Notes: generated by a model not told the origin, from the sequence alone. Positions 1-64,000 are shown, counted from the first letter of the stretch. The stretch: 64,000 nt of DNA from Albugo candida (GCA_040437565.1 JBDOQK010000048.1:1-64000), one strand, 5' to 3'. Made by a program: numbers and translations.

Positions 1-445
1 CTCGGTTCACGAGCTTGAAGTGACAGTCAGGAAACGTGGTCAGAAATCAGTCAAGAACGGCTATATGCGCTCTTGAAAGTGATGAGCTATCGCGGCTTCA
101 AGGTGATAGAGCTGAAGGGGTTCAAGACTCACCACTGGCAGCACTCTTAAAGCTAAAACGCAGTGTTCATAGTCCAGGAACGCACATCATAAGTCGTGTT
201 CGTTTTCTTATTGACGCCGCCTATTTTTACTTTGTTGCTGGTAAGTATGGATTCAGAAATCCAATTTTGTATTCGAGTAAAGATTCGGAACCGAACTGTG
301 ATTTCGATCTATTGGATGAAACTGCACTTATCCTATTCTCTTTCCCAACTTCCTTCAAAGAGATGCACGTGTACCTACCTTTTTTGTCGTGGAGTGTAGT
401 CTTCTGACGACCCGGAGGGATGGAAGCATTAGGAGAACATTTTAT

Positions 446-3400
446 CACTTCCTTAATTAGAAGGCTACAACGTAACCTACCAATTGAGTAGAAAAAGCTC
501 GAAAAAACAATCTTTCACAACCTCATACAATCTTTTCCTCTCCAAAGGGATGGTTCAAGTAGACGTATCGACAAAACCCCGGTTCCATCGTCAGCTTGGA
601 GTGACATGACGACCCTTTTAAGTCACTCAGACTCGGGCGATTGCATAATTATTGATGAATCATTACCCCTGAGTGATGATGTGGAAGTTCTTCCCACCCA
701 TAATGTGACGATACAGCGTGGTACCGGTGGTACTATAACTGCCTCGTTATATGGTGGTACCAAGGTAACTACAAGTGTGAAAAACAGACGTACCACTTTG
801 GCATACCTTATCAAGTAGTAAGAGTCTTCACGCGAAAACGAGGCTAGAGCGAAAGCACAATACCACGTGGAGCTCCCAACGCCGAAAAGCTTCGAATATT
901 GCTGCAATATCTTATCGTTATGGTGTAAAGTATCCTGATTCACCAGCTATGGTCGCCAAAATCGCGGCACGACCTCTCAAAATTGAAAAAGCAATTTATC
1001 CAATGATTTTGGCACGGGCAACGCATCGGTTCGTCTTCCCAGTAGGAAGTTGCTAGCCTCAATCCTCCGGGATCATGGCAACCCGGTTTCATCCTTTTTT
1101 GGATATTCGCCAGATTGAAAAAGATTTCAAGAGGGAATTTGAGAGTGATGGTTACGTCTACAGAACCGTTTGAATAACTGTATTGTTAGTCACCCTTCGT
1201 GGTAAAAAGTACTTATTTAAAGAGCACGACATTTTAGAATACCGGTATTATCTGGACGCGTTTGAAGTCGTTCTGGAAGTTTAGCGTATGGGTATATTGT
1301 AATACCTCCACGAAAAGAATTGTGGAATTCTTCGTGATAGCTTTCGAGAAGCAATTTTCTTCAAAGGAGTGGCTATGTCGACGCGGAGGATTTTCGCGCG
1401 TCTTTCACATGCCCAGAAGCATTGAATGCTTCGCTTTCAACTAAACGTGCACTTTTTGCTCAGCACTAACCATGCGGTTTAGTCTTAGTAGCCGTTGCTA
1501 CTACCCCAACAAAAGTTCACTAAACAACAACAAAAGTCCTAAAAAAAGGCACCCATGATCGCCTCGACATCACCGGTTGTGTTAGTTTGGTCCAAAACAG
1601 GTGGCTAAGCAAGAGAAGAGAAGACTATCCGACCAAATATCGTTGTACTTCAACTCTCCTCCGTATGTAACACAACCGGGCACCCCTAAACTTCCGCAAC
1701 CAACCCCTTCTCTTCTCCTACTTAAAAAAACATCTCCACTCTTCTTATCAGATCCAGTGGAGCGGAATGGGATCGTTCGTGAGGTAAACGCCATCGTGTA
1801 GATCCATTTTGTCACGTGATTTCAAAGGCATGCCCTCTTTCTATACCTTAGCTGGCAACGATCAATCACTTCTCGGTTCTCGCAACCATGGAAGTAGAGA
1901 TATGGGAGATTATATTGGTTGGAAACCTGTCACATGGCACCCGCTTCCATATTATTTTTGTTGAAAACACGGATCCCATAAAAGCTAGCCACTTCAGGAG
2001 AGGCTGCCCAGTTTTTTTCGCAAACGCCACAACAAGGACGAAAACAGAAAAAATAACTCGGGTTGGTCAGGGGGAGAGCTGATGGAAATTAAATCCTCCC
2101 CACACAATCCGACCAGACAATCTGGTCCAAGCCGATGCACAGATCCCTCATGTAAGAAGGCTCGTACATTTATGCACGAATACGAGCAAAATTATCCAAG
2201 CAGAACTTGATCCTCAGATCGCAATGAATGTGAAATGCTCGAGTGTATAGAGTCAAATGACACATCTGCTCATAGTTGATAGAATATTCGTAGCTTTTGA
2301 TTTGAATAAATATGTTACATTTCCAACGCGATAGCGTCGTCGTGCTGATCGAGCGGTTCCATCGAAGCGAGATATATTGCTCGAGAAAGTTATGTGGTGG
2401 TGAAAGTCAGTTCCAAATAGTTGACTGTGTCTCTCGAGTAACCAAAGCTCTCGCCATAATGGATCTAGTACTCATTCTCCATAAACGATCCCTGGGTCCA
2501 ATATCTCAGAGATAGGCCGTTATGTGGACTACGGGTCATCATTGCCGTTTAATGCCGCTCAAAGTCCTCCGTTCATTTTTACGCTTCAATGTGGGCATCA
2601 AGTGTTGGTCACGATGGTTCGGAATTAAACAGCGAGGTGGTCTCTGCAATGATATCGACGACGAGCTCTCCGTCAATCATAGCTGTTTCACCGAAGAAGA
2701 TGCAATACTTCACCTCTCCAACCAAGATGTGGGGTAAAACGAGGTTAACCACTTGTCCACATCAGCGTCAATTCTAAGGGCTCCTCGATTATTTCAACGT
2801 GGAACAATATCTCAGCACTCACGTTGAATGTCAAAGGAAGTCATAAAAATGATTATCTTTTCATCGATCACGTTTTTTTTACCACAACACAACATTTGTT
2901 ATGTTCAAGAACTAAGTTTCACGATCACAACCAACTGGACTCCTTTCAGTTTTAATTTCCTCAAAAATGCAGCACAAAATTTTTGTCAATGATCACAACA
3001 GTGCTTCTCTCCATCCGACTCAAAATCGCAGTGGCGACGTCATGACAATCCTTCGTTCGGATTTTTTTGGTTATAAAACAGCTGAAGAACTCACCGAACG
3101 AAGCATTCGAATCGCTATTTGGTTTTGCGTCTTCTCATTCACGATGCACCGGTGTATATTCACAGTGTATATGCAACGGTCAAGGCCGAGAAACTTGTGG
3201 TTGTTTATGAGTAATTGCTCTCCAGCACTTTCGAATCGACCCCAACACATCTCGTATTTGGCGATTTCAACACACCACTCGATCCAGCTATCGATGCTTC
3301 GAGTGGAACAATTCGAGACGTACCAAGTCGATTAGCGTGTTTGGAATGGCTTTCANNNNNNNNNNNNNNNNNNNNNNNNNNNNNNNNNNNNNNNNNNNNN

Positions 3401-35177: not shown

Positions 35178-35501
35178 TGATTTGAACAGCTTGGATTTAC
35201 TCGATTATGCCCTGTGTATATGCAAATTTTGCATGTTGATGGAAAATGCTCTTGCACGGCAAAAAAAACNNNNNNNNNNNNNNNNNNNNNNNNNNNNNNN
35301 NNNNNNNNNNNNNNNNNNNNNNNNNNNNNNNNNNNNNNNNNNNNNNNNNNNNNNNNNNNNNNNNNNNNNTCTTGCACGGCAAAAAAAACAGTGGTGCAAC
35401 TCTTCAGGGTCTTAATTTTCACGCACTTTTGGGAAAATCAACTGGTCGAATCGATTATCTATAATTTCGTAGAGGCTACTACTTATCACAGTGCTGTAGA
35501 C

Positions 35502-37767
35502 ATGATCAGACAGTTTAGCCGCAGATCACCTACTCGTCTTGTTTTTGATATCAAGGCAATTCCTCTGCACTATTCCTTGGTCTATGGATCTTCAATACTT
35601 CATCACAGGAGGCATATCGAGACATCGTATGGAACAATCGCTAAAGTTGGTGCAAAAACGACCACAACGAGTGTTACAAAGACACATCATGCAATCATTG
35701 GTCTTCTACTTGCAGCTGGAATTAGTTTACAATATGGAGATAGAAAGAAAAATGGTGAAGAATACGAAGTGAGCTTGTTTGGTAAAATCGCTGAATGTTG
35801 TGGCATCATGGGCGTTGTTGGGAAATCTGGAAACGCGTCCAACTTTCTACTGGAAGGGGTGACGATATTACAGAATCGTGGTTATGATTCCGCAGGTATG
35901 TCCACTCAGAAAAGCATTCCGGATGAAAATGGACAGGCGCCCATTACTACAACCAAATTTGCCTCTGTTGATGGCACTGCTGATTCCATTCAATTATTGA
36001 AAAACTCCAAAGAACAGCATGACGGAAATAATGTGGGCATCGCGCACACGCGATGGGCAACCCATGGAAGTAAAACTGATCATAATGCGCATCCTCACAT
36101 GGACATGCATGGTCGTGTCTCTGTGATACATAATGGAACCTTTACAAACTACAATGAGATTAAACAAGAACTTACCAGTGAAGGCGTCATATTTGCATCG
36201 GATACTGACACTGAAGTTGCGGCACAATTAATCGGGCATTTGATGGGGGATGGTGCTGATGTATTAACTGCTACTCGTCTTGCATTATCAAGGTTAGAAG
36301 GAACGTGGGGTTTATGCATCATGGCTCGTGATGAACCGGGGAAGATTATAGTTGCTCGTAATGGATCCCCGCTGTGTATTGGATATGGCTCTAACGAAAT
36401 GTATGTTGCATCAGAAACAACAGCTTTCTCCCGATACACCAAACGTTTTATTTCATTAAAAGATGGTGAGCTTGCTGTATTAAAGTCCGACTCCGCGGAG
36501 CTAGATCCTGTGGACGAAAAAGAAGGCTTTCTTCAGCGCTTTCCCACCAGTCGATATGCAACGGCACCAGATGTCAAAGTTCGATTGGCACCAACACCGT
36601 ATCCGCATTGGACGATCCGAGAAATCATGGAGCAACCTAAAGCTGTCGCAGCGGCTCTTGGGTATGGTGGCCGTGTGAGTGTGGATCATGTCTTCTTGGG
36701 GGGGTTAGAAGCAGAGAAAGAACGAATGCTCAAGATCAAAAATCTGCTTATTGCGGCTTGTGGAACTTCGCTGTATGCGAGCAAGTATGTTTGTCCGATA
36801 TTTATGCTGATTTATAAAATGCTGACGAGTGATACAATGTAGATACGGTGCCAAGTTGATGCGATCGTTAAATGCTTTTGATAATGTCAGCGCAGAAGAT
36901 GCATCTGAATGCACACCTGATCGATTACCCAGAAAAAAAGCAGGCGTCCTAGTTGTCTCACAATCGGGTGAAACACTGGACGCTGTCCGTGTATTGAAAA
37001 TGGTAGAAGACTTGCCAGTCGAATTCCCGACATTTTCAGTTGTGAATGCAGTCGGATCTCTGATAGCTAGAACAACAAAATGTGGCGTATATCTTAATGC
37101 TGGTCGCGAGAATGCTGTGGCAAGCACAAAAGCATTTGTGACTCAAGTGACAGTGATGGGATTGATTGCGTGCTGGTTTGCACAGAATCGGCCTGAAGGA
37201 AACCACACAAAAATGGATGAATTGATACAGTCAATGCACCGACTTCCAATCGCAATCGGTATTGCGCTTCGAACTCGTCAACAATGTGAGCAGGTTGCCG
37301 AGAAACTAATGTCCTCGGAGCATCTATTTGTGCTGGGGCGCGGTTATGGTGAGCCAATTGCGTATGAAGGAGCGCTCAAAATCAAAGAGTTATCGTACTT
37401 GCATGCAGAAGGATATCCAGGAGGTGCCTTGAAACACGGTCCTTTTGCTCTGATTGAAGACGCAAAAGATGGGAAAAATGGTGCGACTCCGATCATTTTG
37501 ATCGTCTTGGATGATGAGCACGCACAATACATGAAAACGGCGGCACAAGAAGTTCGTGCGCGAGGAGCCCATACCATTGTGATTACTGATAATGCCAAGA
37601 TGTGTGAAGGAATCGCTGACACAATCATTTCCATTCCCACAAACGGTCCAATGACTGCTCTTTTAGCTTCCGTTCCATTACAACTAATTGCGTACACATT
37701 GGCAGTAAAGAAAGGCATCAATCCCGATGTTCCAAGAAATCTTGCGAAAGCTGTAACGGTGGATTGA
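35502..37767 (+). CDS. GFA1: Glutamine--fructose-6-phosphate aminotransferase (GFAT/GlmS) with a 99-aa N-terminal extension; 2 exons, 735 aa
   Basis: CGIMG, NRGYDSAG, AHTRWATHG, HNG, SDTDTE, ACGTS, SQSGET, VASTKAF, EGALKIKE, LKHGP and C-terminal PRNLAKAVTVD. Intron 36785-36842 joins in frame (SK|YG). Confidence 0.97.
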
Positions 37768-41047: not shown

Positions 41048-43278
41048 ATGTATACGGGCTTTGATCAGATTTGTGACGCATTCGGATCCGAGAGTTTCAC
41101 CGAAATCAGTAATGTCTCGAGAGCACAAACCTTGTGTCTTGAAGGAGTGAGCGCGGACGAAAATGCAAACATTTCAAAAGATGACCCAGTAAGCAATACA
41201 GACGTTTCGGAGAAATTGAATGCCAAGAGTAGCGCTTTAGTACATTCTGAATGTACAGCTCGAACCGAAAAGCATGTGCATGTCCCAGCGGATGAAGAAA
41301 CGGTGAGTATTATCACACCAACCTCCAAAGAGCATTCCTTCAGGATAAGTAGAAATCTCACTTTTCAGCAATTACTAATCGATGCGGCTTCCTATTGGAG
41401 TTTACCCGCATCGCAGGTTGTGCTTCGTGACGGTAAAGGAGGTATATGGCCGCATAGCGAGTCTGTTATGGTGACACTGGCTGCAAAGCGAAATAGGAAG
41501 ATTAAAGTGATACTCGACATCAGACAGACCAGTTGGGCATCTACTTTTGCACATCTTGAGGAAGCATGTAACAGCAAACGAGACCAAATTGAACCATTTC
41601 CTAAATCATTACCTATATCAAACGCTTCTTCTACTTTGTATAAAGATTTGTGGGGTATTTTCACATTTTACTGCGTACAAGGAGGCGACTTGCAGGTGGA
41701 TCTCATGAAGGCACATCAGTTTACAAAGCTGCTGCAGGATTGCCAATTGCTGAACAAAGTTGTCAAGCTCGAAATTATGTCGATAATCTACAACGGCGAG
41801 ATCAATGGCAAAGTGCAACTTAATTTCGAAGAGTTTTTGAATCTGATTTCGAGAATTGCAAAATTGGCAATAACAAAGAAATTGAAATGCATTCAAGGGT
41901 GCAAGAAAGAGGAGGAAGCAGTATATCAATTGGTGGTTGATCATATATTGCCTAAAGCTTGTCGATGGCCACAAGAAGAGTGGGAGGTCAGTACGATCAA
42001 AATTCATCAGAGAGAAGTCATAGTGTTTTTCTTTGGGCATTTGAAAGCATTGCTTGCAATATTCATATTCTACGCTCGATCATATCATAAGAATCCTGCG
42101 ACAGGTGTGCGTGAGTTTTACATGTCATACCAAAACTTCCAGCGTTTTATCAATGATTTTCTATTCGCCAAACTTCAGCTATCAACAGTGAGTTGTGCGC
42201 AGATTTTTCTTGCAGCTTGTTGCAGCCGTCCTTTCCACGTGCCAATATACCATACCGTCGATAAAGATACAAAGATGCTGGATCCAGAGTCAAGCAGCAT
42301 AAAAGCATTTGTCGCTACAAAAGACGTGGAAGAGACTCGAATTGCCACTATTCGAGATTTGATTTCAACCTCGGGAGTTGTTGTTGCTTACACATTTCCC
42401 GCATCTCTGGAGAACAGGGCAACCTGTATGGGATTTTCAGCGTTCATCGATTTTCTTGGTCGTGCAAGTCTTACCGCATACACGAAATCGGACACTATCT
42501 CGTGTGTCAAAGCTCTCATCCATCATGTATGCAGTGAAGCTACACACGCACGTGTGATGGAGATTATTGAAAATCATGGTAGCTCTTGTGTACATGCAAA
42601 TACCTTCTACATGGGCACAGCCGCACTCAAANNNNNNNNNNNNNNNNNNNNNNNNNNNNNNNNNNNNNNNNNNNNNNNNNNNNNNNNNNNNNNNNNNNNN
42701 NNNNNNNNNNNNNNNNNNNNNNNNNNNNNNNAACCTCGGGAGTTGTTGTTGCTTACACATTTCCCGCATCTCTGGAGAACAGGGCAACCTGTATGGGATT
42801 TTCAGCGTTCATCGATTTTCTTGGTCGTGCAAGTCTTACCGCATACACGAAATCGGACACTATCTCGTGTGTCAAAGCTCTCATCCATCATGTATGCAGT
42901 GAAGCTACACACGCACGTGTGATGGAGATTATTGAAAATCATGGTAGCTCTTGTGTACATGCAAATACCTTCTACATGGGCACAGCCGCACTCAAATCAA
43001 AGTTTTTCAAAGCGTGGAAAGAAGAAGGTTTTCCCGACTACCTGGCCGCGAACGTTGATGTTGCGCGTCGTCCGGAAAGGGCGGTGCACAGGAAGGCAAG
43101 ATTATTGCATCAACGGGCAGCGATGGGTAAAAATTTAGCCATAACATCTTTTCAATACGATAGNNNNNNNNNNNNNNNNNNNNNNNNNNNNNNNNNNNNN
43201 NNNNNNNNNNNNNNNNNNNNNNNNNNNNNNNNNNNNNNNNNNNNNNNNNNNNNNNNNNNNNNNGTGAAGAACTCCTAA
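41048..43278 (+). CDS. Hypothetical protein with a ubiquitin-like segment and p25alpha/EF-hand-like repeats; 3' end obscured by a gap
   Basis: Long ORF with IFTFYC...MKAHQFTKLLQDCQLL...LNFEEFLNLISRIA and a second IFIFYA...MSYQNFQRFINDF unit. 42366-42631 is repeated at 42732-42996 across a gap. Confidence 0.65.
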
Positions 43279-48694: not shown

Positions 48695-51600
48695 TCATTT
48701 GACTGCCCGACTTCTGGCGATGTCATCCCGTGTGTGGTCATATGATCTCCCATTCCAGCATTCATTCAAATTTCCAGGCAAACTCAAACGCTGTCGCGCG
48801 CATAACAGCCACTGCAAGATTAGTTTTTTCTCGATAGAAATGTTGGACCCACTTTCGTGAGATAATTTGGGTAAAAACCTATTCTTGTGCAAATTGCTAT
48901 CCGGCGAAGATCCTGACATGTGAAGTCTACTTCTGAATTCTTCTTTCTCTAGTGCATTGTGGCACGGATCGCATAGAGTCATATACTTGGCTTCTTTGCG
49001 GAAGTAGGCTTTCCAGAGATCCGAACCTGATTCCTGAGACCCATATGTCACTTCAAAAGTATCAATGAGTTCATCCATAGCGTTTCGATTAAGACACTTT
49101 CCGGTGATATCAAGTAGCCAATTCGTTAGCACCCTTTCATTGCTGGCATCACTTCGGCAATTTTCACAAATTTCTTGCTTGTTGCTCGCAAGAACAGTAG
49201 CAACAACGCTGCCATATGAGCGCCTATTTCGAGCCTTGGCAATCCAAAATAACATCACATCTTTAGATGCGCCTTGTACTGGAGTACTGGACCAGTTTCT
49301 TCGGAGCTTTTCAAAATTGTTCTCATCATCGGATGAAACTTCAGAATTCCTTCCGTGCTTCTTTTCCATATCGATCAAGTCGTTATAGAACTTTCGTATA
49401 TTATCATGGGATAATTTGTGCTCGGGATCAGCTGTTGCTATTGTGCGCGGAGTCAACATATCTTTCAGATGCTCCAATATCCAAGGCTGATTCATTTGTA
49501 AAAAACGATGGCGAAAGTGCTCTGACTTCATTGCCTGCAAATCCAAACGTTCCTGTTCTTGTTCATACTGCCGACCACCTCCAGCAAAAAGCTTGGTTGT
49601 GACGTCATCTTCTAATGTCACAGTGATCCCTTTCAATCCCCACATATTTGTACGATATCCGATGATATGGCTGACCCGATGAATGCACCAACATACGCCA
49701 ACCATAAGTGGAACAATAAGCAACGTTATCGAATCACCAAAAGGGCTATAATCAGCACGTAAAAAAATGGTGATGCTCATTACACATAGCAGTATCCCCC
49801 AAGAGTACACTGTAATAAGAAAATAAAATTGCGATGAAAAGCACAACAAACTCAGCGATTGAAATGTGGGATGAAGATTCTGATCCATTTTTGTGTGATG
49901 GAGTTGCCATCTCTTGACTCTGGTAGCAAAACAATGTCTCATATAAGAAAAATACTCGTAAATTTTCCATCCTCTTAGAAGCTCCATTGTATTTAATTCA
50001 AAGACTCCCATAATCGTATGCGATGGGATGATAAATATTCCAAAGAGAACGTAGTAGACCAAATCAGTGCGTTCCACTCCATACAATTCCGCGACTTTTG
50101 TGTCATCATAAAAGACAAGCTGAAATGCTGACATTAATGGAGCTATAAAGAGCTCCGTCGATGCCACGCAGCATCCCGTGATTCCATTAATAATGCACTC
50201 AATTCCAAGATCAATTTCATCATCGACTTGATCGGATTCTTTGTTAGCTTCTTCAGCTTCATCATCACTCGACGTCTTTGAGTCAAGATGTCGTTTAGCG
50301 ACACATTTGTGTACAAACCTTGGTAAAGTAACACCGAGCCGCTGGAAAAGATGAGCAAGGTACAAACGGTCTGCAAGCGATAGTCCGAGATTGAAGTAGT
50401 ACAATATAGCAAACTGAATGAATTCCGATGCAGCCGTTACAATCATCAATTCAGTTGCTGCCAGAACAACCAGGAACGGTACCACAAGTAGTCGCTCATG
50501 CAATACTTTCTGCAAAATTGTTTCAATGGCACTACGGAAGAGCTTAAAAATGACGAGGAAAAGATAAATATGCTTGGTGAATAAGGTTGAGTAAGAGAAT
50601 TCCCACGTTATCAGTAAGCCCACGATGAAAATGATTGTTATTAACAAAAAATTGACGCGCTTCCATGCAAGTGGTCTCCATAAATCGTTTTCTTTCCCCT
50701 TCTCTTCTTCTCTTTTCAACGTCTTTTTGTCATCCAGGTCGGCAGACGGTTCCCGATAAGCATAATCATTGGTTTGACTATCCAGAGTATATGGAATCAG
50801 CAAAGTAGCACCAAGTGCAAGTAAATACATTCCAGCAACAAAAAAGCATGTTCCAACGCGTCCTCTCTTGTAAATTGTTATTTGCTCTTGTGTGAGGGCT
50901 ATTTGGTACGTGTAATCACCAGGAATAGACTCAAAGGAAGCTTTACTTGGTGTGATCTCCGGATTATCAGAACTCAATCCATGCCACCATGCGTAGATCA
51001 GCCCACATACGACAAGAACAGGGATGGTTGCTACAAAAACTCCATACGATGGAGACGCAAAAATGTTCCACAGTAGTTGCTGAAATCGAAATCGTGGTGG
51101 ATTTTTTGATTTTGTGAGGCATCGACTTATAATCCAGGCAGCAAACTACGTTATAGAATCAGATGAGGTCAGTGGCAAGCTCGAGAAATATAAATGATCT
51201 ACTTACGCCCATTAATGCTGTCAGTAAGCCAACAAGAAGAAACATGATCAAGTAAATATGAGCGGTAAATTGGAAAAGATTCATTAGATCGAACCAGTCA
51301 AGAGGTTTCCAAATGATTTGCAAAGCATAACCGGCTGACGCCAGGGATTTGGTTGCTGCATTAATCGGGCATTGCCCGATCCCGATTGCCGACATCTTAC
51401 TCAAAATCTTCACTGATCTTGTGGGTGTACAAAGCCGACCAAAATTGATTTCTGCTGCCACAATACGCTTCTTTCCGGGGCTGACCTGGTAATAAGTCAT
51501 CCTGAAATATACCTCCTGCGGAATCGCTGACGGTAATCCTGCACTTTTTCCAACTTGAACCGCTATGAGATCATCGGAGGCGATGAGCTTACTAATTTGA

Positions 51601-54600
51601 TTGGAGCGTCCCCAATTCAAGAGATTCGACTCCGTGTGAGGATTTATTGAGTCATCCTTTCGAATCGCCGATCTAGTGATATAAAAAAGAGTAGTACCTG
51701 TCGGAGCCTCATACCATCTTGTCAATGCTGCTCCTCCTTCTAAATTTTCTTCATAAATGCAATCAAGCGATATGCCTCGTTCGGAATTGCTTTTATCAAC
51801 AAGCAAGCAGCTGTCAGCAATAGGGTTCATTTGCTTCCTCCACGGATACTGGTTCACGTGTTTTGTCGCATTGTAAGGCACAAAATTGCAATCGGGATGC
51901 GACTCGACCAGTTTGGATAGTATAAGATGAGAGCCATAACCTCGGCAATTAGAGAAAAAGGGAAGATACGGAATCGTCAAGTAGCTCGACTCATTAAGAT
52001 GTGTGTCCCACCAGTTGTCAGTATGCTGAATATTCCCAATTGCGTCTTTAATCGGATTGAGTCCAAAGTATTCGGTTGGTGGCACTCTTCGTATACCCAT
52101 TTGATCGTTTGAAATGCTCTGACCATTCATTGCTTCCTGTTGTGTGGTTCGAATGAAGCCGCGTTTCATTGGCAAAAGCGGATCCCCGACAAAAATGTCA
52201 CTAATACGATCAAGTAACAGCTTTGAAACAACTTTTGTTTCTGATTTAGTCTCTCCATCTTCCGTTTCCACCCGCTGTAATGTCTCGGGAAGATTCAATG
52301 GTAGCATCAAATTCTCAAAGCTACTCCGTTTAATGACACACAGTACCGAGTGACTTGATCGCACTTTTGGATTATAATCAGCTCTTGTTGGTGTGAATAT
52401 GTTCAGATCGATATGATGGGGAGCGAATCCTTGCAGGAAGTCCATCACATACAGACCGTGCAACAATTCCGCAACAACAAGTATCCTTGCTCTGGCCATT
52501 GCTGTAATACTAAATTGGATGTAGCCATGCTTGTTATCCGGTGACCCCAACTCAGAACTTTTTTCTTCAAAATAAGTAGGCATTGATAGCCGTTCACATT
52601 CACAACATCCACGTTGCGTTATCTCTTTTTTTAAGATATCATCAAATAATGTACGCTTCTCACAGAAATATGGCATGCTACCGCATACGGTGACATTCCT
52701 TTCGCTTTTCATGCATTCTTCATAAAATCTCATTCCTGTACGGCTGTCTTGACCCGGATAACTGCACGTCGGTGTAGCTGCCTTAAAATCACAAATGTAG
52801 CGTGGGGGACAAGGCTGGCAGTCCTGATAAATAGAAATATGATAATGGTCCAAATAAGTAAAGTTTTTGGTGAATTCTGTTGTGTTGATTGTGAATGTGG
52901 CAACTTGTAATTCTTCCAGACTGATGCCCTTGACTGTTCCAACAGGTTCAGACAGGTTTTCATGTAGTACGTTACTGCCAGTATTACCTGACGGAACCAA
53001 AGGGATGCGCCGCAGTACTTCAGTACCTGTTGTGAAACAATCATAAATATCATGAGAGCCAGCCGCCGATGATGTTCCATTCGGGCATTTGAGAAGAGAG
53101 GCACAAGAGCATGCATCCAACCGAATAGGGTTCGAGGAGTTTTTCACTTCGAAATTCACCATGTTTAAGGTCTCCTCTCCGTAGTGGTTGATGATATTGA
53201 CCGCATGGTAGAGATCATAGAGATAAGGATCGTTCCTCGAATTCGAGGATAGAACTAATTCTTGCTCTAGTCCAAATAATTCCAAAATCATGTTTTGGAG
53301 CTCTGAGTAAAGCCTAAACCTCTTAGTTTCTGTCCATGATGTTCGTAATTCAATACCGCCTTCTTCGATCAGAGCAGATATATTTCGCGTTACTCCGTCA
53401 CTTTCATTGTAGAAAAAGCACTGTCGCTGAATATTGACGGCCTTCTTTCGACCATACAACTCGGTGATCGGATTTACCTCATTTTCCGGGAAACCCTTGG
53501 GAAAAGTACACTTCCATAGCTCATAAACCCGATGCACCACCCTGATTTGACTTGCACAATCACATTCGCCTCGATATATTGCGAGTGCAACTTGTCTCCA
53601 CTTATGGTCACGAGCGCATCTAAAATTGTTAATAGTTGCTTCGCTTCTAGTGTATATACCTGAGGAACCAGGACTATTGATCGCCGTCGACTTATATATC
53701 AGTTCCAAATTCTGATCGACGCCATAGATACAGTGCAGGTCGTGAGATGAAAGAAGTCGAACAGTACCATCACTAAGATAGCTGGCATGACTTGTGTTGG
53801 AGTACGGATTGATTTGATTCGCATCCAACTGACGACGCAAACCATCATTGGCCATTAGACCAAGATATGGATTACTTGTACCTGTAGGACAGAAATATCC
53901 TTGAGGGCAAACGTTCTTATATTTCTGTGAGCTTGAGGTCCCTGGTGGGCAGAAATGGCCTGCAGGACACATTTCCGACAGCTCCCCATAGGGGGTTTCA
54001 AGCGTGATATCTGGAGTGGTGCCTGGACCGCATACATAACCACCAGGACAAGGATGGGATAAAGCATTTGATCCAGAAGTGCCGATGTCACAAACGTAAC
54101 CTTCTGGACAAGGCTGAGCCTGCGATACAATATCAGTCGCTGTTTTTTTGGATGAGATTCCTGAGTGACAAATGATATCAGCCTCACATGTGCCCGGAAA
54201 CCATTGATCCTTAAAGATATATCCACGGGTGCAATTCTTCGAAGCTAAATTGTTGGGTTTTGCGGATGCGATAGAGAGTGAGCCACGGTCAAACATGTTA
54301 CTTGCAGGATCTTGGCCGACATTACCGTAACCTTGATGCGGAACGCCTTTTTCGATCTCATGAAGCGGTCCATGATAATAAGCTATTCGCTGATATAGGA
54401 TCGAGCCTTCTGGCTGAGCATTTTTGTAGCATCGACCATCTCGCGAATAGAGAAAATGCGGACCTCTACCTTGTTCGTCTATCCAAGGCTCCAATAAAAC
54501 GCCGTAAAAATAAGTACTTCCTCGTTGTGAGCACTCTGCATAGGACAGATTTTCATGTATCGGAACATACTGATGAGGTAAATCGTTTGGGGAACATGGA

Positions 54601-57600
54601 TATATTGTGCCTTCATTCGGACACACAATGCCAGGAGGACATTTTATACATTCCTCAACCCCGCGCAGCTCCCAATTTTTGGACCATGTACCGGGAGGGC
54701 AAGGAAGACAAGATATACCATCAGATGATAAAGAGCTACGATACGTTCCTGGTAAGCAAATATCAGCTCGGATTGAGCCTTCGTTCTCGCAACTCGTTCC
54801 AGGGGGACAAGCAATGCAAGTTGAAGATTCTATGGTAGGAGCATAGTGGCCAGGTGAGCACGCTGTCGCCGTCGAAAGGCCCTCCAGAAGTGCATATTTA
54901 CCGGGCTGTGTTGGGATGGGGACAGCTGTTCCCACGGGGCAAATGAAGCCGGCAGGGCACAACCCTGATCCTTTTCGAGATACTGATGCAAGCTCACACA
55001 AAAAGCCAGCAGCACAGTGCTGCGCATACCGAAAATCCCCATCACGGATTTGGTCGGATATTGCACCTTTGAGACAGTAGGTGCCTGGTTTGCATGGGTA
55101 CGGCCGAAGACTAGTGTCGTTGCGAAACACATCGACAGTAGCAGTACCATTTGGACAATAATATCCAGCTGGACAAAGGTAATTTGGAGAGGTAAGCCCT
55201 CTTTTGCTACATACCATTCCTGGAGGGCAGATGGATGGTACAATTCGGTTGAAACCAGGACAAATGTAGCCAACGGGACACAGCGTGCATGCTTCTTGAC
55301 TGAGCATGCCATTAAATGTTCCAGGAAGACATGAAATCGGTGATTTTAATCCAGTACGAGGGCAATACGTACCAGCAGGACAAGCGATTTTATCTCCAAA
55401 TGGACAGTAAAACCCTACTGCGCAACCTCCCCAGCCATGAGGACTTTCACTACCCTCTGGGCAATACATGCCATCAAAGCAAGGTCGAGGCAGTGTAAAT
55501 AGATTCATCACAGAATTGTTGCCTGGTGATCCTTCATGGCAGTACATGCCGCTTGGACACGGTAAAGGCTGTTGGAGAGCTTGTAGATTTTTGAACATAG
55601 CTTGGTTGTTCGTCATACGTCGAATGTCGTATAAAAAGTAGTGCAAAGGAGAAGTACACTGGTCTTTTAGACAAAAACGGCCTCGTTTAGCTTTAAAGAT
55701 GGATTCTGATGACAGGGGAACTTCCCTAGAGTCCATCCAAAATCGAGCTGGTTGATCACTGAGCTGTAAACCAAAGTCATCTGTCGCATTATTCCAACAG
55801 CCACTCTTGCGTGTCCTAAGACGATAATATGGGTCAGGACTGTTTATAACCGCAACTGAGCTCTTTTGTGCTGCAATAATCGATGAAACAATCGAACGCG
55901 AAATGCAGCCTGAAACGGATGTTGCTGTACCCTCCAGACAGAAATGTCCCTTAGGACAAAGCTGTGATGCTACTCTAATCTCGGGTATATCGCAAACATA
56001 CCCAGCTGGGCATATCTGTGGGACGTGCATACCAAAGTTCGGGCAGTGATAACCGATCGGGCACCGAAGGCATGCAGATGCACTAGAAGACGACTGATAC
56101 GTTCCCGGTGGGCAAAGGGTGAAATTACGATTACCCTCTCCTGGGCAGTAAGCTCCTTTGGGACAGTTGATTCCTTGACCATTCACATGAAGAGGACAAT
56201 ACATCCCTGACGGGCAAGGTCCAAGCAGGTCCATGACTTGAAAACTCGATGTGAAGTCGATACCATTCACGGAAATCTCAACATATACGTTGCTGGCATG
56301 CAATAACTGTGATCGGTTTTTGTCGGCAATAATTCCTTGAATCGGTCGAAAATCATTTATTATGCAGAGCATGAGATTTGGTGTGATAAAAACCGCATCA
56401 ACGAGCTCGATTCCCACTCGGCATACTAACGTAGTCACATTGATGAAATTAAACCCTTGGATGAAAAGACTCAACTCTGGGACATCATAAACCTGAGGTG
56501 GATATATTGATGTAACATTGGGATCCTCGTAGTAAATGAACTCCAGACCACTTTGACTGAATTCTAATCCGTTATTGGAAACATCAATGCTCACTGCAGA
56601 AAGCTGATAATGAGGATAAGTTTGGGCTTCTGAGGGTTTAAGACCAGTACGAGTCTCATCAGATGAAAATGGTCCGGTCCGAGCTCCGATAGAAGTATAC
56701 TCTAGTCCTCTACTATGTTCAGAAATGGGCGGCGAGGTGCATGTCATCTTGTAAGGACTCCTATAGGCTCCTGGAGTCACCGTGAAACCGAATCGGCATG
56801 AAAGGGAAGAATCATTGACAAAATCCTGACCATGTATTGTGACAGTTGTGCCTGCACGTCGGGCAGGCCCCATGACTGGAAAAATGTCTTTCATGATCAG
56901 TGTACGATAGTATAAGAATGTCAAGCCTTGAGAGGTAAAATCCAATCGATTAGTGGTGATTTCGAGGGAAAGTAAGCCTGCACGGGATACTTTTGGTGCT
57001 TTACACTGAATTTGATTCGACTGTACCCAGCTTCCCAATACTATCTGGTCCCCAAATCTGCAATGAAGTTCATCGGAAGTATCCTCGAAGAACGGACCGC
57101 CGAAAATATCAACTATATAGCCCCCGTCAATAGACCCTGAAGATGGGAAAATGTCACGTATGATCACGGGTTTGTCGTAAGTGAAAATTGCTTGATCTAA
57201 TACATTCATATGGCTGGCAATAGTAAAGCTGTCCAGTGTAATGGTAACTGGTATATGAATTCTTTCTTCATCGTCGTCGAAATCTATGAAGAGCCGCGGA
57301 GAAATGCATGATATTTGAGTAAAACTCTGATACACTGCTGGTACTCTCATTTCATATTCATTTCCGAAACAGCAAGTGAGATGCGACGAATTAGGAATGT
57401 TACTGCCCATCACGACTACATTTGTGCCACCTTGGAATGGACCATGTGTTGTGTTGAGGCTATGTACTTCTATGAATGGAAGGTAGCGGTATAGGACACC
57501 GCTTCTTGAGAAGTCCTGCATATTCGATGATACCTCGACGGGGACCAAGAGTCCGTCTCTGGATAAGCCTTCTTGTGTGGTTATCAAAGCTACACTTACA

Positions 57601-60600
57601 TTGCTTCCTTTCAAATCTCCTCCGATGACATTGAGCGATATATCTTGCGCAAGTGCTGGGGTATATGTCAAATGCCAAACATGGTGCAGGTTAGCGGCGA
57701 CAATCGTAGTAGAGACGCTTAAATGTTCCAAATCAGGTAGAGTGGCAAGGTGTTCCTTCAAAATTGCATCGGTAGCATTGTAGGATATATAGGCGGTACG
57801 AGCATGGAGACAATCTTTTCCCTCAACGATGTCGGTGCAACGCTTTCCAGCAGAGGTCAATTCTAACTGAAAGTTTCCGGAAAGCGCCATTGTAGTGGCC
57901 GGATGTCTTGTTATTGTGACTATAAGCCCAATGTGCAACGGTTCATTTTCGGCGAACTTCAGCGAAATTGGAGGTGCATCTTGCAGATAGTCATGAAATA
58001 ATACAAGCCAAATGTATCCAAATCCATTGCTACAATCGATACGTTCCACCATCAGATTACCACTATACACAGTCAAAATAGAGCCTTTGAATTCACTTGC
58101 ATTGGCACGCGTATTGATTTGAGTTGTTGCGGAAGTGCTATTCAGTACAATTGTAAAGCTAGCATGTGGAGACGCAAACGCGCCGCAAATAGACACGCTT
58201 TGTATTTCGTTGTGCGCTCCATTCGCCTCAACCCGAGAGCTAACATTAATACGGCTTCCTTGCAAATTTGAACCATCGAGAACTACTGGCGCCAGCAGGC
58301 TTTGTGACACTTGATGCTGAACGGAAATCCATAGGGACGACAACGAGATTCTCAATTCGCACCAATTTTCGCCGTCAAATTTCTCTACAAAAACCTGCCC
58401 TTGAGATGATAACGATTCCAATGTAGAGATAATTTCTGACTCGGTCACATACCGAAGATGCATTTCTGGGCTTTTGCGATTTTGGTAAGAAAGACTAAAT
58501 GTACCACCCAGGTGAGCATTTTCTCTCGATAGTACATCATTACTAATGCTTATATTTGACTCTTTGAGGTTTGCATCAAGTTCTGGGACAAGTTCATGTT
58601 CCGAGCTTGAGTAGGGAAATGTAATATTCCAGTACAATTCTTGCCATGGACCTTGTCCAAACGATCGAGTGACGTTCACATGATTTCCAGCAAATATTCC
58701 ATATGAGTTCAAGGCTTTCATCATTCCATGTGCTGAAATATTCCATGGGAGGTTGGGAGTGTAATTGGTATTATAATTCAAACGGAACGTTCCTACGGTT
58801 GATCTAGTTGCATTTTGTAATGTCTGGGACGAATTGACAAGTTTTGATGAGTCGCTGTCGAATAGTATTAGCTGAACTTGCTCCAAGTCATCACACTCCA
58901 CAATTGATTCTCTATTTGGAGATCTGAAGTCAGCAAACGTTAGTGTCCATGTAACTCCACGAATCGATACATCAGTGCTTTGGTCAATTGTCAAGTTCTT
59001 AGTTCCATCGAGTCGACCGCTTGCGTGAAGTATTTGAAAAACGGCTTCCTTCAGTGAATCGATTGTTATATTTGTGAAAAGTGGCTCCGTCACTGCATTT
59101 TGATATCGCAGATAGAAATGATCATACACGACATTTTCCGCCATTGCGCTCAATACTTTTGTTTGATTGTCGTTTTCTCCGAGAGAAATGGTATCAAATT
59201 GCAATAATGCGAGCTGATCACCAGTATGGGTATTGATTTCGACTTTCCACGATCTTGCCTCGTTTCCGATTCGTAAATCCGAAACCTGAGCTACTCGCAT
59301 ACCAGGAAAATCCATCAGCAATTGGTCCAGAGAGGCTTTGATCGCATGACCGTTGTCATCAAATGGAATGTTGACAGGGCTCCATACGTCTTTGAGGCCT
59401 AATCGAAAAACTGGTAAAATTGGAGTTCCGACTCCTTTTCTTAACTCCACAACTGTTTGTGATTGTCCGCAGTTCATCTCTGGAACGTCTCCTGGCCAGC
59501 TTAGAAAAGTGATTTGCCACGCAGTACGACCGGTGGGAGTATTACCAATTGCAACGTCGATTTCTCCGAAACCTCCTAGCAACATCATTTGCTCAAATTT
59601 GTCACTATTTGAGTCGAACGGTATCGGTCCTGAGCTATGATTATGCACATCACATCTAAAGTGCCCACTACTGAGGGTAGTTGTCACTTGTTGCACTTCA
59701 CTTTTGCTTCCAGCACTGACTAAATTGATCAAGATACGTCCATTTCCACTTGCAAGGTTACCTACTTGTGGCAGTATTGTTCTGACTCTATTTGGTAATG
59801 CTGGAAATTCGACGATCCATTCGATTTCCCCGTTGAGATTTTGTGTTTTTCGACTGAGAATACTAATTTTTTTTGCTGGAAACACAGTATCTTCTAGTGC
59901 TGACAGTAGTTCTTCTGCAGAAGCATCATAAAGTATCGATAGGGAATCAGCGTTGTCGATGTTCAATTTGAAACTACCAGAAAGCGGTTGACTGAGGCCT
60001 TTCACCAGTTCCACCACTTCGATCTGCAAATCATTCGTACGTGAATCCTGTAATGACACATTGCGTACTATTAGATCCGGAACATCGCCCCGTTTCTCTA
60101 AGAACTCGATCTCCCAAGTGCAGGATCCTGTAATTGCTGAGATTGTTGATTTGCTTACTTTGACATTGCCAGCCGTTTCGAGCATCTCAATTGCGTACTC
60201 GACTTCGTCTGAAGTAGAATACGCATACAAGTGAATTGTCTCTTGACCTTGCATCTCAAGTTTGAACACTCCACCAATATAGGATGAAGACCACATACTA
60301 ATTATTTGGATCTCATTGCGTATGCTCAGCGGTGCTTGTGTCTTGATTGAAATAATCTCACCGTTTGGACCATTATCCGGGATTTGAAATGTGATTAATT
60401 GCACAGTTGTGTGTTCTTCACTATACACCATCAAACGCTGTATCTCCGGACTACGGACGGAATTAGAACGAAGTCGAATCTGCTGCACAGATGGTACGAA
60501 AGGGTCTGATTCGATTCGAATTCGCATCACATGCGGCAAGAAACTGGATGCCTGGATGTGTAGCTCCTGAACAATTTGCAAATCTACCAAAGGCGGAGAA

Positions 60601-63600
60601 GTGCATGCGAGTGAGTGTGGTGAAAATCGCTTTGCTTCGACAGTTGAACGACCAAAACGACAATAAAACTTGTCTCCGGTTGTATCATAAAACTCTTCTC
60701 CCTCTATCAGAACCTTCTGTCCTCCTCCCACAGGTCCTGAATCTGGATCTAGGCTCAGCACATGCAAAGGAATAACGAACCAGAACATTGACCGAGCCAT
60801 AATAAAGTTGTCAAGTCCATGCGATAATTTCACCACCACAGGACCATCTTTAGAGGATTGTGGTGTGCGGCATGTAATGTGACTAGCATTAAAAACCTCT
60901 GAGTTTGTAAGAGGCAATTCTCCAAATTGGCACTGGTATGAGATATTGGCATCATACTCGAAATGAGACATATAAACGAGCGTTCCACCTTCAATTGTTC
61001 CATGAGACGGAGACAACTGCATATGATTGTTCAGCCCGTCCATTGTGTAAACAAAGTCTCCTGCATATAAGTCAAAATCCAAACCATTGCTCGATATATA
61101 TATTGGCTTTGTGTACTCAGAAATATCTGCAGATACTTCAACGATCGGTGGCGATGTGCACAGCAAAATTGATTCTGACACAAGCTTTGCTGTTGTTACG
61201 GTGTCACCAAATTTGCACTTGAAAATACTTTCTGATGCTTCCATTGCAGATACGCTCGTGTTTTGTATTGACAACGTGAGTACCACATGAGTGAGACCCG
61301 TCACAGGTCCCCGCATGGGAGCAGCATGCACAACCTGTAATGGCATCACGTAGCGAAATGGTAAACTATGCATACTAAAGTCTTGAGCGTCATTATGGCT
61401 GAGCCGTACTTCCACAATGCTATCCGCACCCTCATCAATGATGTTGATATCTGTAAAAATGCCCACACCCTTTAAATCTTCGCCTAAGATATGTAAACTG
61501 CTCACAGTGCTCTCTGGAATAGCGCTTTCTGATTGTATCCTCCATCGTGACCCATTTCGACTCTCCGTGTCGTTATAATTGCTTCGAGTTACGTCCACGG
61601 ACCTTGCATCAAATAAATTTTGTAGCTCTCGCTTCAACAAATTCCCTTCGTCATCGACCGAAACCGTACTCGTCAGTCCCGATTTTGTTTGCAATTGAAA
61701 CGATCCCCTCAATGAAGCGACCTCCCCTTCTTGCAATGTTTTCACACAGGCGGTGATACCGTGCCCTACTAGCTGGCTTGTATCTACCGTAAGCAGTGGC
61801 ACATCTTCAAGAACATCCGAAAATTCAACTCGCCATTCGGTTCCATTTTCAATTGTTCTTTGCTCAACGTTCTTGATACCTCTTTCAGGTAATATGTCGG
61901 ATAATCGAAGCGCGCGCAATGCATTTAAAACGACAGCATCAGTAGCATTCGCATAATAAATCGAAAGTGATTGTTGATCCTTTAAGGTAGATCCTAGTCG
62001 AAAAAATCCTTTCATTATCGTTCCTCGAAATGTATCGTAGAAAATCTCGGCCTTCCCACTAACTCCATCAACCACTGCATCCTGGAGATATATTCTGTCT
62101 CCGCTCCCGTCCAGGACCGAAAATGTGATGTTCCAAACGACTTTGGAAGTGGTAAATTTGCTCACTTTGATCGGGTACAAGCCCAAACCTTTAGAAATTG
62201 CTTCATGCAGATCATCGGTATTTGCATCGATGCTAACTTTAGCCCATCTCGATGCATTTGTCGTCAATCCAAGAGTAATCTCCCCGGTTGTCTCGGCCGC
62301 GGCTCCCGATATACGCATAACACTTTTCGATACTTCTGAAGTTGAACTGAGATTATCATCGACAATTCTGAGCATTTTCCGCTCACTTGCATCCAGATCA
62401 AATGTGATATCCCAACAGAAACCATAATAATTTGGCACATACGACCTAGAGACATTGACATTTAAAGCCCCCTCTATTGATCCCAATATATCTCGAAGCT
62501 CCAAGGCGCGAATCATAGAACTCAACACGGGCGTTACACTCAGTCCATACGCCAAGACAAAATGGCCAGATATGGGGCTCTGAGAGGATATTATTATTCG
62601 TTGAACTTCCATGACCTTATCTTGTTGTGGAATGTGTATTGATACGACAGGTTGTGACAAATTACTCTGAAGCAGTTTTATTGACTGAATCTCACTTCGA
62701 ATTGGTTTTTTCGCTCCATCTTGTAAAGTGTGCACATGAACTCTGGCCCCTTCGTCATTACTTATCAGAAGCTGATTATCTGACATCAACATATCGATGT
62801 TTCCAGCCGTGGGTTGAAATGTCACTGTCCAAGAGTAACAAGAATGATCGTACGGATCGGATCGAGTTATGGCCATGACCGGAAGAAACTCGGACAGGAT
62901 GCTGAACATAGAATTTCGGGTCCCATCCATACCCGGAGCATCATATGCGATATACCTTGACCAACGTATACCGGTCCCGACGCTATTTGTTGATCCTAGC
63001 GAAAAGTATCCACTCAAATCCGAGCCTCGTGATTTTAGATGTGTTGATATCACCTGTACTTCCGATCGTGCGATAAACGCCGCGATGACGATTTCGAATA
63101 TAGTTGGTCTCAGGGTACTAGAAGGAGTATAACAGCGAACTGAGGTGCTTGACTGTTGGTAGGCAGGCACCACAAAGTTTCGTGAGCGTCTGTGGCCAAA
63201 TTGGCAGTGTGTAATGCGTAGTCCTCTCTCAGTTGAGTGGTAGTCAACCACGGTCGCGGTGCCACCGTTGAAGGGACCCGATTGAGGATTTATTTTCCGT
63301 AATTCAATCTCCGGGTAATAATTGAAACGAGTTGAATTTGGTATCGGAATAAAGTCTTTGTTATTGTTTGAGATTCTGAGGCTTGCCCACCCTTTTGCCC
63401 GATAAAGCTCCGCATTACTACAGGTGGAATTGCACCAATGTCCTAGAATTGAAGGGGCTTTACAAACGACCGAATTGCTTGATAGAAAAATCCCTTTTCC
63501 AACGCTAGTCGACGTATAATTCCTTGCAGGAGTATTGATTGACCACGAGCAGCTTAACATGGATGAATTGATAAAGTTGGTGCCTTGTATAGTTACTGAC

Positions 63601-64000
63601 GAGCCCCCATGACTCGATCCTGAATTTGGATAAATAAAACTCTTCAGAATGATTTCTTCGTAATAAGTGAAAATTGCTGTTCCAATAGATTCAAGACCAG
63701 CATCTGCTGAGTGCCCATCAAAGAACATTCGCAGTGCTACGTACACGGATCGTACCGCTGTAGATGGAGGACTTGTGCAACTCACAGCGGTGGCATTCAA
63801 AAAGAACGCATCGGAAATTGTTTGTCCAAAGACACACATAAGGCGCGACTCTGAAGTAAACCACTCCCCCCTGAGTATTATAGGAGTTCCGCCTCTTGTT
63901 GGACCGATGTTAGGTTGTACATCCCAAACGGTAGGATTACGTACATATTGATACGTGAGTCGGTTTTGCGCGACGTCTTGTCCATTATACAACACTTCTA
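48695..64000 (-). CDS. Giant (>5000 aa) surface/membrane protein: >=10 IPT/TIG domains, ~100-aa beta repeats, Cys-rich (GCC2/GCC3, ephrin-receptor-like) repeats, multipass TM region; 5' end outside window
   Basis: The 4278-aa ORF joins the 760-aa ORF via a phase-0 intron 51146-51206 (LMG|FAAWIISR). PxxGPxxGGT TIG starts, CPxGxYCP repeats at ~53870-56220, many hydrophobic helices at ~49650-51330. Frame is open at the window edge (EVLYNGQD, the end of another TIG). Confidence 0.9.

Follow-up and report, generated by a model that had tools for sequence, protein, structure and literature searches.

How should a protein chain fold when it lays down several short strands and only later supplies the domain bodies that such strands might complete? 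This question is raised by a segment of a giant reading frame of Albugo candida, located near the end of a 64,000-nucleotide stretch of DNA (GCA_040437565.1 JBDOQK010000048.1:1-64000; hereafter the window). A first-pass annotation had proposed that an IPT/TIG domain is split here by five strands and five bodies that can be paired like nested brackets, and that the arrangement grew by repeated domain insertion just after the first strand. In our reading, the block is very probably a single IPT/TIG domain with a 565-residue insert, in which five copies of a domain resembling the CTEs of phage Bxb1 are nested, each opened after its strand 1.

The host reading frame lies on the minus strand (51159..63998), holds 4,279 codons inside the window and is open at the window end. 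It extends to at least C48:75779, for a total of 8,206 codons from stop to stop including N gaps, and it contains TIG repeats, three nested blocks, a Cys-rich region (ephrin-receptor-like) and a membrane segment at its C-terminal end. The relatives that carry names are hypothetical proteins of oomycetes and an ochrophyte, namely Pythium insidiosum (P0014), Phaeothamnion confervicola (P0026) and Aphanomyces (P0033 cluster). The region 60500-64000 is unbroken, with neither indels nor joints, in the contigs of all four public runs compared, two of which are near-identical and possibly of the same source as the window DNA; this rules out an artefact of assembly. The compared contigs contain 15 letter differences, of which six are silent and nine change an amino acid; none creates a stop, and the set is uninformative. 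Two further explanations of the block, that its motifs match by chance and that the frame is an artefact, were considered and rejected.

Several features of the surroundings should be recorded separately. A 61-base GT...AG stretch (51146-51206, minus strand) would connect the giant frame in phase (…ALMG to FAAW…) with the one that follows (48698-51145, minus strand). The latter encodes eight predicted membrane segments and a tail, so that a multi-pass membrane module is the probable end of the giant protein. N gaps interrupt the giant frame at C48 ~68,490-68,590 and ~71,170-71,270 with duplicated sequence on their flanks, and because such duplications give spurious partial repeats in the upstream block, counts there need care. 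Elsewhere in the window, two overlapping plus-strand frames (35214-36842 and 36829-37767) encode glutamine amidotransferase and SIS domains and probably belong to a single glucosamine-6-phosphate synthase gene that is interrupted by an intron or a break in frame. A 2,630-codon frame on the minus strand (27285-35177) has no Pfam match at E 0.01, and the plus-strand frames 22323-24410 and 41048-42922 encode proteins with a Tel2-type telomere regulation domain and with a p25-alpha domain, respectively. Nested runs of the CTE-like unit are also found in three further giant genes of the same genome (C51 ~196-227 kb, C5 ~586-612 kb and C34 ~251-262 kb).

Read on the minus strand, 61344-63311 gives the order TIG N-terminal part, S1, S2, body, S3, S4, S5, four bodies and TIG C-terminal part. 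Residues are numbered here in the window frame; construct numbers are window-frame numbers minus 229. The N-terminal part of the host IPT/TIG domain (63117..63311, aa 230-294) ends in VRCYTPSS. It is followed by the degenerate strand S1 (TIFEIVI; 63066..63107; a strand at E71-79 with a block pLDDT of 91) and by the EVQ strand S2 (63021..63065; 14.9 bits; strand at E85-91), which would be the first strands of the outermost domain D1 and of a leaf domain D2. The first body (62712..63020; HMM E 2e-8) would complete D2, making it a contiguous side-branch domain in the model. Three strands then stand in a row: S3 (EIQ; 62658..62696; 13.4 bits), opening D3; the degenerate S4 (PVVSIHI; 62613..62657; strand at E21-28 in a truncated model), opening D4; and S5 (EVQ; 62574..62612; 17.2 bits; a strand in the models), opening the tip domain D5. 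The second body (62298..62573), whose fold matches Bxb1 gp23, would complete D5 as a contiguous tip domain; the third (62019..62297; HMM E 1e-5; models) would complete D4 with S4, the fourth (61719..62018; HMM E 3e-11; complex model) D3 with S3, and the fifth (61422..61718; HMM E 8e-10; covariation and model) D1 with S1. The C-terminal part of the host domain (IVEVRLSHNDAQDF...FRYVM; 61344..61421) closes the block, and it is contiguous with the N-terminal part in the orthologue P0001.

All seven motifs on which the earlier description relied occur in this frame at the places and in the order given there: VRCYTPS at aa 287 (63140), PTIFEIVI at 298, SEVQVIS at 312, SEIQSIK at 435, PVVSIHI at 450, MEVQRII at 463, and the closing motif IVEVRLSHNDAQDF at aa 861, ending at 61377. 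The TIG split at VRCYTPS and its closure at IVEVRLSHNDAQDF hold as well, the one correction being that the TIG starts at 63311, outside the interval 61380..63130 assigned to the block. The earlier statement that the block independently repeats a pattern is too strong, since the neighbouring blocks belong to the same gene and the same domain family. One of these neighbours, at ~57.5-60.6 kb, parses as nine strands and nine bodies, and does so in P0001 as well. Compared with the other nested blocks of the gene, the present one is the smallest, is branched at the root, has a clean empty-site orthologue and is the most practical for testing.

The five bodies are readily detected. A body HMM seeded from two other proteins only finds exactly five in the block, and five again after retraining without the block (E 1e-5 to 3e-11). 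The strands are less uniform. An automatic tokeniser returns SSBSSSBBBB, where spacing supplied the S4 token and a weak score beside S2 supplied S1; on the strand profile, S2, S3 and S5 score 13-17 bits, S1 4.8 bits, and S4 is negative. The EVQ motif is missing from S1 and S4 in the window sequence, and a degenerate-strand profile did not single the two out (ranks 81 and 91 of 656). Across 150 homologues and the own-genome paralogues, 383 pairs of strong strands show a spacing of 13-14 residues, a further peak lies at 26-28, and the block conforms to both values (S1-S2, 14; S3-S5, 28). Among 16 homologous rows the motif Q is present at the S4 slot in 10 and at the S1 slot in five, both core hydrophobic positions are kept in all 16 at S1 and S4 slots alike, and in P0026 all five strands are directly detected. 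By spacing and homologue conservation, we take S1 and S4 to be true strand slots. The proposed five strands and five bodies are thus borne out, with the qualification that S1 and S4 do not rise above chance in the window sequence alone.

The unit itself is a member of a CTE-like family by sequence and, in the predicted model, by fold. A profile of nine own units matches Bxb1 gp23 (9d93_Ma) with E 9.2e-20, and the body HMM matches Bxb1 gp23, gp19 and gp14. In the model, D5 (S5 with the second body) superposes on gp23 388-525 with Z 13.3 and rmsd 2.3 over 104 aligned residues, on the capsid CTE with Z 10.7 and rmsd 2.5 over 87, and on a chain of phage Patience with Z 9.4, while the remaining fold matches of this tip unit have Z of at most 6.5 (48,161 chains compared). 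The fold is alpha+beta with one main helix, spans ~105 residues and is not Ig. The solved Bxb1 CTE includes the first strand, the match starting at model residue 32-34. With the whole-block model, Foldseek returned Bxb1 gp23 as the sole match at E <=0.001. Pfam holds no model for the unit (a single chance DHH row, E 0.13), and PHROG gave no match for the block at E 0.01; the units of gp23 are matched by PHROG 2839 'tail sheath'. A tblastn search of one unit against phages found only a minor tail protein of phage Phantastic (2 records, E 2e-3), ESM Atlas matches were unnamed clusters only, mostly diatom, and no SBHM appeared among the listed fold matches of the block models. Phage tail proteins had been suggested as a place to look for relatives, and Bxb1 gp23 justifies that lead; as to the companion suggestion of fibrocystin-like proteins, no domain of that type was detected in the portion of the protein that lies inside the window. 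As a side observation, residues 31-138 of model me646c7727bb7 gave weak matches, below the level of kinship, to tail sheath domains (Mu, Z 6.5) and to the D2-D3 flagellar cap domains of FliD (Z 5.8). Tail sheath protein and FliD are both built from inserted domains.

Which strand pairs with which body was addressed by structure prediction and covariation. AlphaFold2 on aa 230-885 (17 sequences) gave a mean pLDDT of 86.9 and a pTM of 0.52, a value that leaves the relative placement and stiffness of the domains loose, and rendered all five slots as strands. In this model the two TIG parts, 565 residues apart, are predicted to form one domain: EBF3 IPT/TIG aligns over the range 1..656 with 84 residues drawn from ~1-61 and 632-656 (Z 13.7, rmsd 1.7). 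EBF3 is the best of many solved IPT/TIG domains that align across both parts, and the host TIG also superposes on IPT domains of plexin A1 and MET. The structure prediction that the first-pass annotation had called for therefore reveals non-local closure, and an outcome of sequential, local domains only is contradicted by the model.

Individual pairings were examined in truncated and complex models. It had been written down before folding that S3 would be orphaned if the fourth body were omitted. In a truncated fold of S3-S4-S5-body-body, made with 21 other natural SSSBB segments, S3 (residues 1-20) indeed has a pLDDT of 58 and forms no strand, while S4 (pLDDT 82) and S5 (86-98) are both strands; it should be noted that S3 is the N-terminus of this construct and that an N-terminal position alone can lower pLDDT. 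Single-domain folds align over ~18..231 of the truncated model, joining S4 to the third body. An ESMFold2 complex computed with no alignment, pairing a peptide of S3 and S4 with the third and fourth bodies, scored 0.75 against 0.07 for the best of three controls, with runs agreeing in at least 83% of contacts and a partner pLDDT of at least 66. In a benchmark that contains no peptides, 51 of 78 solved complexes reach the mark for this score, as do 2 of 108 mismatched pairs (39/65 and 2/126 in eukaryotes). The 25 best contacts all place S3 on the fourth body in antiparallel orientation (209-214 with 490-495 and 520-525), and the contacts K212-E492 and S210-R494 (construct numbering) are in the register given by covariation. 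The models can draw on the solved Bxb1 domain, so that this pass may reflect likeness to it, and the pass does not discriminate among members of the family.

The covariation was taken from the mutual information of 377 un-nested units (effective 225), which shows a residue ladder (S2-B59, S4-B57, S6-B55, S8-B53) corresponding to antiparallel pairing of strand 1 with the W-x-V-x-F strand of the body, together with a coupling of the E of EVQ to the D of GDVP. When this covariation is applied to 15 of the 17 rows of the block's own family, leaving out P0097 and P0138, the nested order takes ranks 2, 3 and 4 of 120 permutations in three overlapping pair sets, with first-in-first-out far lower. In the S1 row the best cell is the last body. 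S3 and S4 are not separated by covariation (exchange -0.08 vs -0.10), and across 12 block patterns nested exceeds first-in-first-out in 8-9, with two patterns clearly against it. For D1, the predicted pairing of S1 with the fifth body draws on the assignment of S1 as a strand, the closure of the TIG and the covariation signal rather than on any contact listed for the model. In addition, body-to-body links are mostly 0-8 residues, and together with the 13-14-residue strand spacing this would leave room only for a last-in-first-out order. The bracket pairing proposed earlier is consequently favoured by four computed results, namely the TIG closure, the orphaning of S3 in the absence of the fourth body, its docking on that body, and the covariation of S1 with the last body. 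We consider a nested, last-in-first-out pairing of strands and bodies highly likely on these models; the pairing is a matter of prediction, and order, counts, spacing, conservation and the empty site are seen in the sequence.

The same bookkeeping was followed across the wider family. The profile of nine own units finds the CTE-like unit in 4,918 representatives at E 0.001, and filters for internal blocks composed only of strand and whole-body tokens, with at least four tokens and at least two bodies, reduced 1,218 token blocks to 278. Exact balance is found in 169 of these, 101 of them being the trivial SBSB, and the other 109 are not exactly balanced as parsed. Among distinct balanced patterns, 14 of 18 are well bracketed (3.95 expected by chance), and 40 of all 73 distinct patterns deviate from balance by no more than one (shuffled mean 24.5, maximum 36), with the caveat that many rows are orthologues, not independent, and that detection is imperfect. 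Well-bracketed counts tell us that strands come before bodies, not which strand pairs with which body. Other arrangements of the unit were also noted. P0009, P0048, P0101, P0134, P0148 and P0153 carry runs of strand plus N-half (SNSNSN…), a gp23-type opening, with up to seven in succession in P0148, and other unit-bearing proteins contain PATR and dockerin (P0074) or RTX repeats (P0106), which suggests that these are bacterial surface proteins.

Homologues provide natural controls. The block is common to oomycetes and an ochrophyte: nine homologues have it complete or nearly so, five more have part of it, and P0097 and P0138 deviate. Word-indexed protein searches gave only two matches each. 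Alignments of the block to whole homologous proteins left the block scattered or misplaced, and neither was used for folding. In P0001 both flanks match with 11 residues between them and the TIG is unsplit; because oomycetes and an ochrophyte both have the block, its absence from P0001 is probably a loss. P0097 reads SSBSBBB plus one strand seen by eye: S5 and its body are missing together, and S4 leads straight into the third body. Separately, the large upstream block is reduced in P0001 (aa 3100-3430) to its first two strands and last two bodies, with ~1,500 inner residues missing, a reduction of the kind that nested pairing would allow.

Three other ways of reading the block have to be weighed against this nested pairing. 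Pilus donor-strand complementation is a strand exchange in trans, and the strands of the block might similarly be exchanged between molecules, making it a module that polymerises or cross-links a lattice at the surface. In the model the peptide is a separate chain and docks on the bodies, members of the family may be able to replace one another, and the CTEs of Bxb1 assemble in different ways on the surface of the capsid, according to the accessible part of one report (PMC8704799). Nevertheless, a complete intramolecular solution exists at high model confidence, only pairing in cis requires the counts to match exactly within each chain and the host TIG to close, and unit-wise loss in orthologues preserves the balance within the chain, so that we consider exchange in trans very improbable. 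Slightly more improbable still is that the domains are local only, the strand runs folding on themselves as a hairpin or meander or serving as flexible linkers, the bodies folding without strand 1, and the equal counts being a by-product of duplication. The loss of the EVQ motif from S1 and S4 and the 109 of 278 blocks that are unbalanced as parsed would fit such a reading; it is hard to reconcile with the modelled TIG closure across 565 residues, with an S3 that stays unfolded without the fourth body despite the adjacent S4 and S5, with the covariation of strand 1 and a core strand of the body, and with the inclusion of the first strand in the solved Bxb1 CTE.

The strands might also complete bodies within the chain in a different order, either first-in-first-out or with S3 and S4 exchanged, and to this we assign the smallest chance of all. 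The models place S3 on the fourth body (complex) and S4 on the third (truncated), although in covariation the exchange of S3 and S4 ties with the nested order. A first-in-first-out order scores above the nested one in 3-4 of the 12 patterns, yet it scores far lower in the block's own family and would orphan S5, the best-ordered strand, and a spacing of 13-14 residues provides no linker for crossing back.

Under the nested pairing that we prefer, the architecture would be as follows. The TIG would hold D1 (S1 and the fifth body), whose loop would hold in series the leaf D2 (S2 and the first body) and then D3 (S3 and the fourth body); D3 would hold D4 (S4 and the third body), and D4 the tip D5 (S5 and the second body). 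Along the series TIG > D1 > D3 > D4 > D5, inserted domains are by prediction themselves hosts, i.e., the insertion is recursive. Strand 1 would be an integral strand of each unit, antiparallel to the W-x-V-x-F strand of the body and beside the body's last strand, with both ends of the unit at the same pole, so that a whole unit could fit the strand-1 loop of another. On its way outward the chain would lay S1, build the spur D2, lay S3 and S4 and turn in D5, the outward ladder consisting of single strands, each of one domain length (13-14 residues); on its return it would pass through three bodies, each closing on its waiting strand, and finally complete the TIG. The product would be a four-domain arm with one spur, its stem crossed twice by the chain, projecting sideways off the TIG chain of a giant, membrane-anchored surface protein. 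If straight, the arm would be roughly 17-18 nm long (4 x 13-14 residues x 3.3 A).

Related systems show which parts of this layout have precedents. The Bxb1 structures used for comparison are gp23 (distal tail / tail tip cage, PDB 9d93) and the C-terminal extensions of gp14 and gp19 (9d9x, 9d9w, 9d94). In gp23, three N-parts (profile 1-57) precede their C-parts within an insert missing from D29 gp27, forming a nest; gp23 is therefore a solved precedent, from the same domain family, for nested CTE-like units in one chain. The available text of PMC13252515 mentions three CTE-like domains in gp23, and that of PMC8704799 describes the Bxb1 extensions as external, dispensable and of unknown function. 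The two nests differ in that gp23 opens after about position 57, past the helix and the next strand, whereas the Albugo block opens after strand 1 and lays only one 13-14-residue strand outward per unit. The Albugo nest is moreover branched, four deep and set within an IPT/TIG domain of a eukaryotic membrane protein, while the Bxb1 units sit on structural proteins of the virion.

A second precedent is Si3 of cyanobacterial RNA polymerase, in which, as far as the accessible parts of PMC13114784 and PMC10895346 describe it, eight SBHM copies are joined by six-level recursive insertion with bifurcations. According to the same sources, it shares with the Albugo block recursive, partly bifurcating self-insertion that yields an elongated arm, with some domains drawing on distant regions of the chain. 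Its fold appears to be a different one and its setting is an intracellular enzyme, whereas the Albugo design uses a single-strand ladder with fixed 13-14 spacing and recurs in many blocks, spread over several giant surface proteins. Plexins, MET and fibrocystin-type proteins resemble the Albugo protein in having long TIG chains on a membrane protein, but the solved IPT domains matched here are continuous and the Albugo host TIG is split. In fibrocystin-type proteins the TIG chain is also accompanied by G8, PA14 and beta-helix domains; Pfam detected none of these families in the 4,279 residues of the protein inside the window, and PA14 occurs in two of 15 scanned homologues from other families.

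A literature search, made mostly outside subscription papers, found no description of the CTE-like domain or of this layout in eukaryotes. The principle of recursive nesting is thus known, and its eukaryotic, branched, strand-first form has no counterpart in the literature found. Few examples of self-nesting within one domain family are known; in a 2026 survey covering 2.7 million domains, the six levels of cyanobacterial RNA polymerase serve, in the part accessible, as the showcase (PMC13114784). Here the nesting principle appears with single-strand opening, branching and recurrence over a large unannotated family.

The tip contains no enzyme or ligand domain. We give about an even chance to a purely structural arm that has no part in catalysis and serves as a bristle or spacer in the coat of the cell surface, for which zoospores or flagella are a plausible site. 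The external position and dispensability of the Bxb1 extensions lend this indirect support, as does a Phytophthora cinnamomi proteome, in which TIG is among the abundant Pfam domains distinct to zoospores, the proteins not being identified in the part of that report available (PMC8360494). As for its history, the balance tips moderately towards an arm that grew by whole-unit insertion after strand 1, before the split of oomycetes and ochrophytes. The layout and the unit-wise differences among orthologues fit the growth by insertion after strand 1 that had been suggested earlier.

More tentatively, stramenopiles could have turned a virion-decoration domain shared with phages into a grammar of branched trees, the arms forming a bristle coat on motile cells, though we place the chance of this somewhat below even. 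If such a grammar is true, each 13-14-residue strand opens a bracket and each body closes the latest one, sub-trees are gained or lost whole while the host Ig-like chain remains undisturbed, and unpaired strands must wait in the secretory pathway for their bodies, for ~460 residues in the case of S1. The block of 656 residues is small enough for expression and comes with natural controls (an empty site and a four-unit form) and residue-level predictions. It suggests a modular route to branched protein scaffolds, and it makes testable both the co-translational folding of long-range, last-in-first-out strand complementation and the role of giant TIG/FN3 surface proteins in oomycetes and algae.
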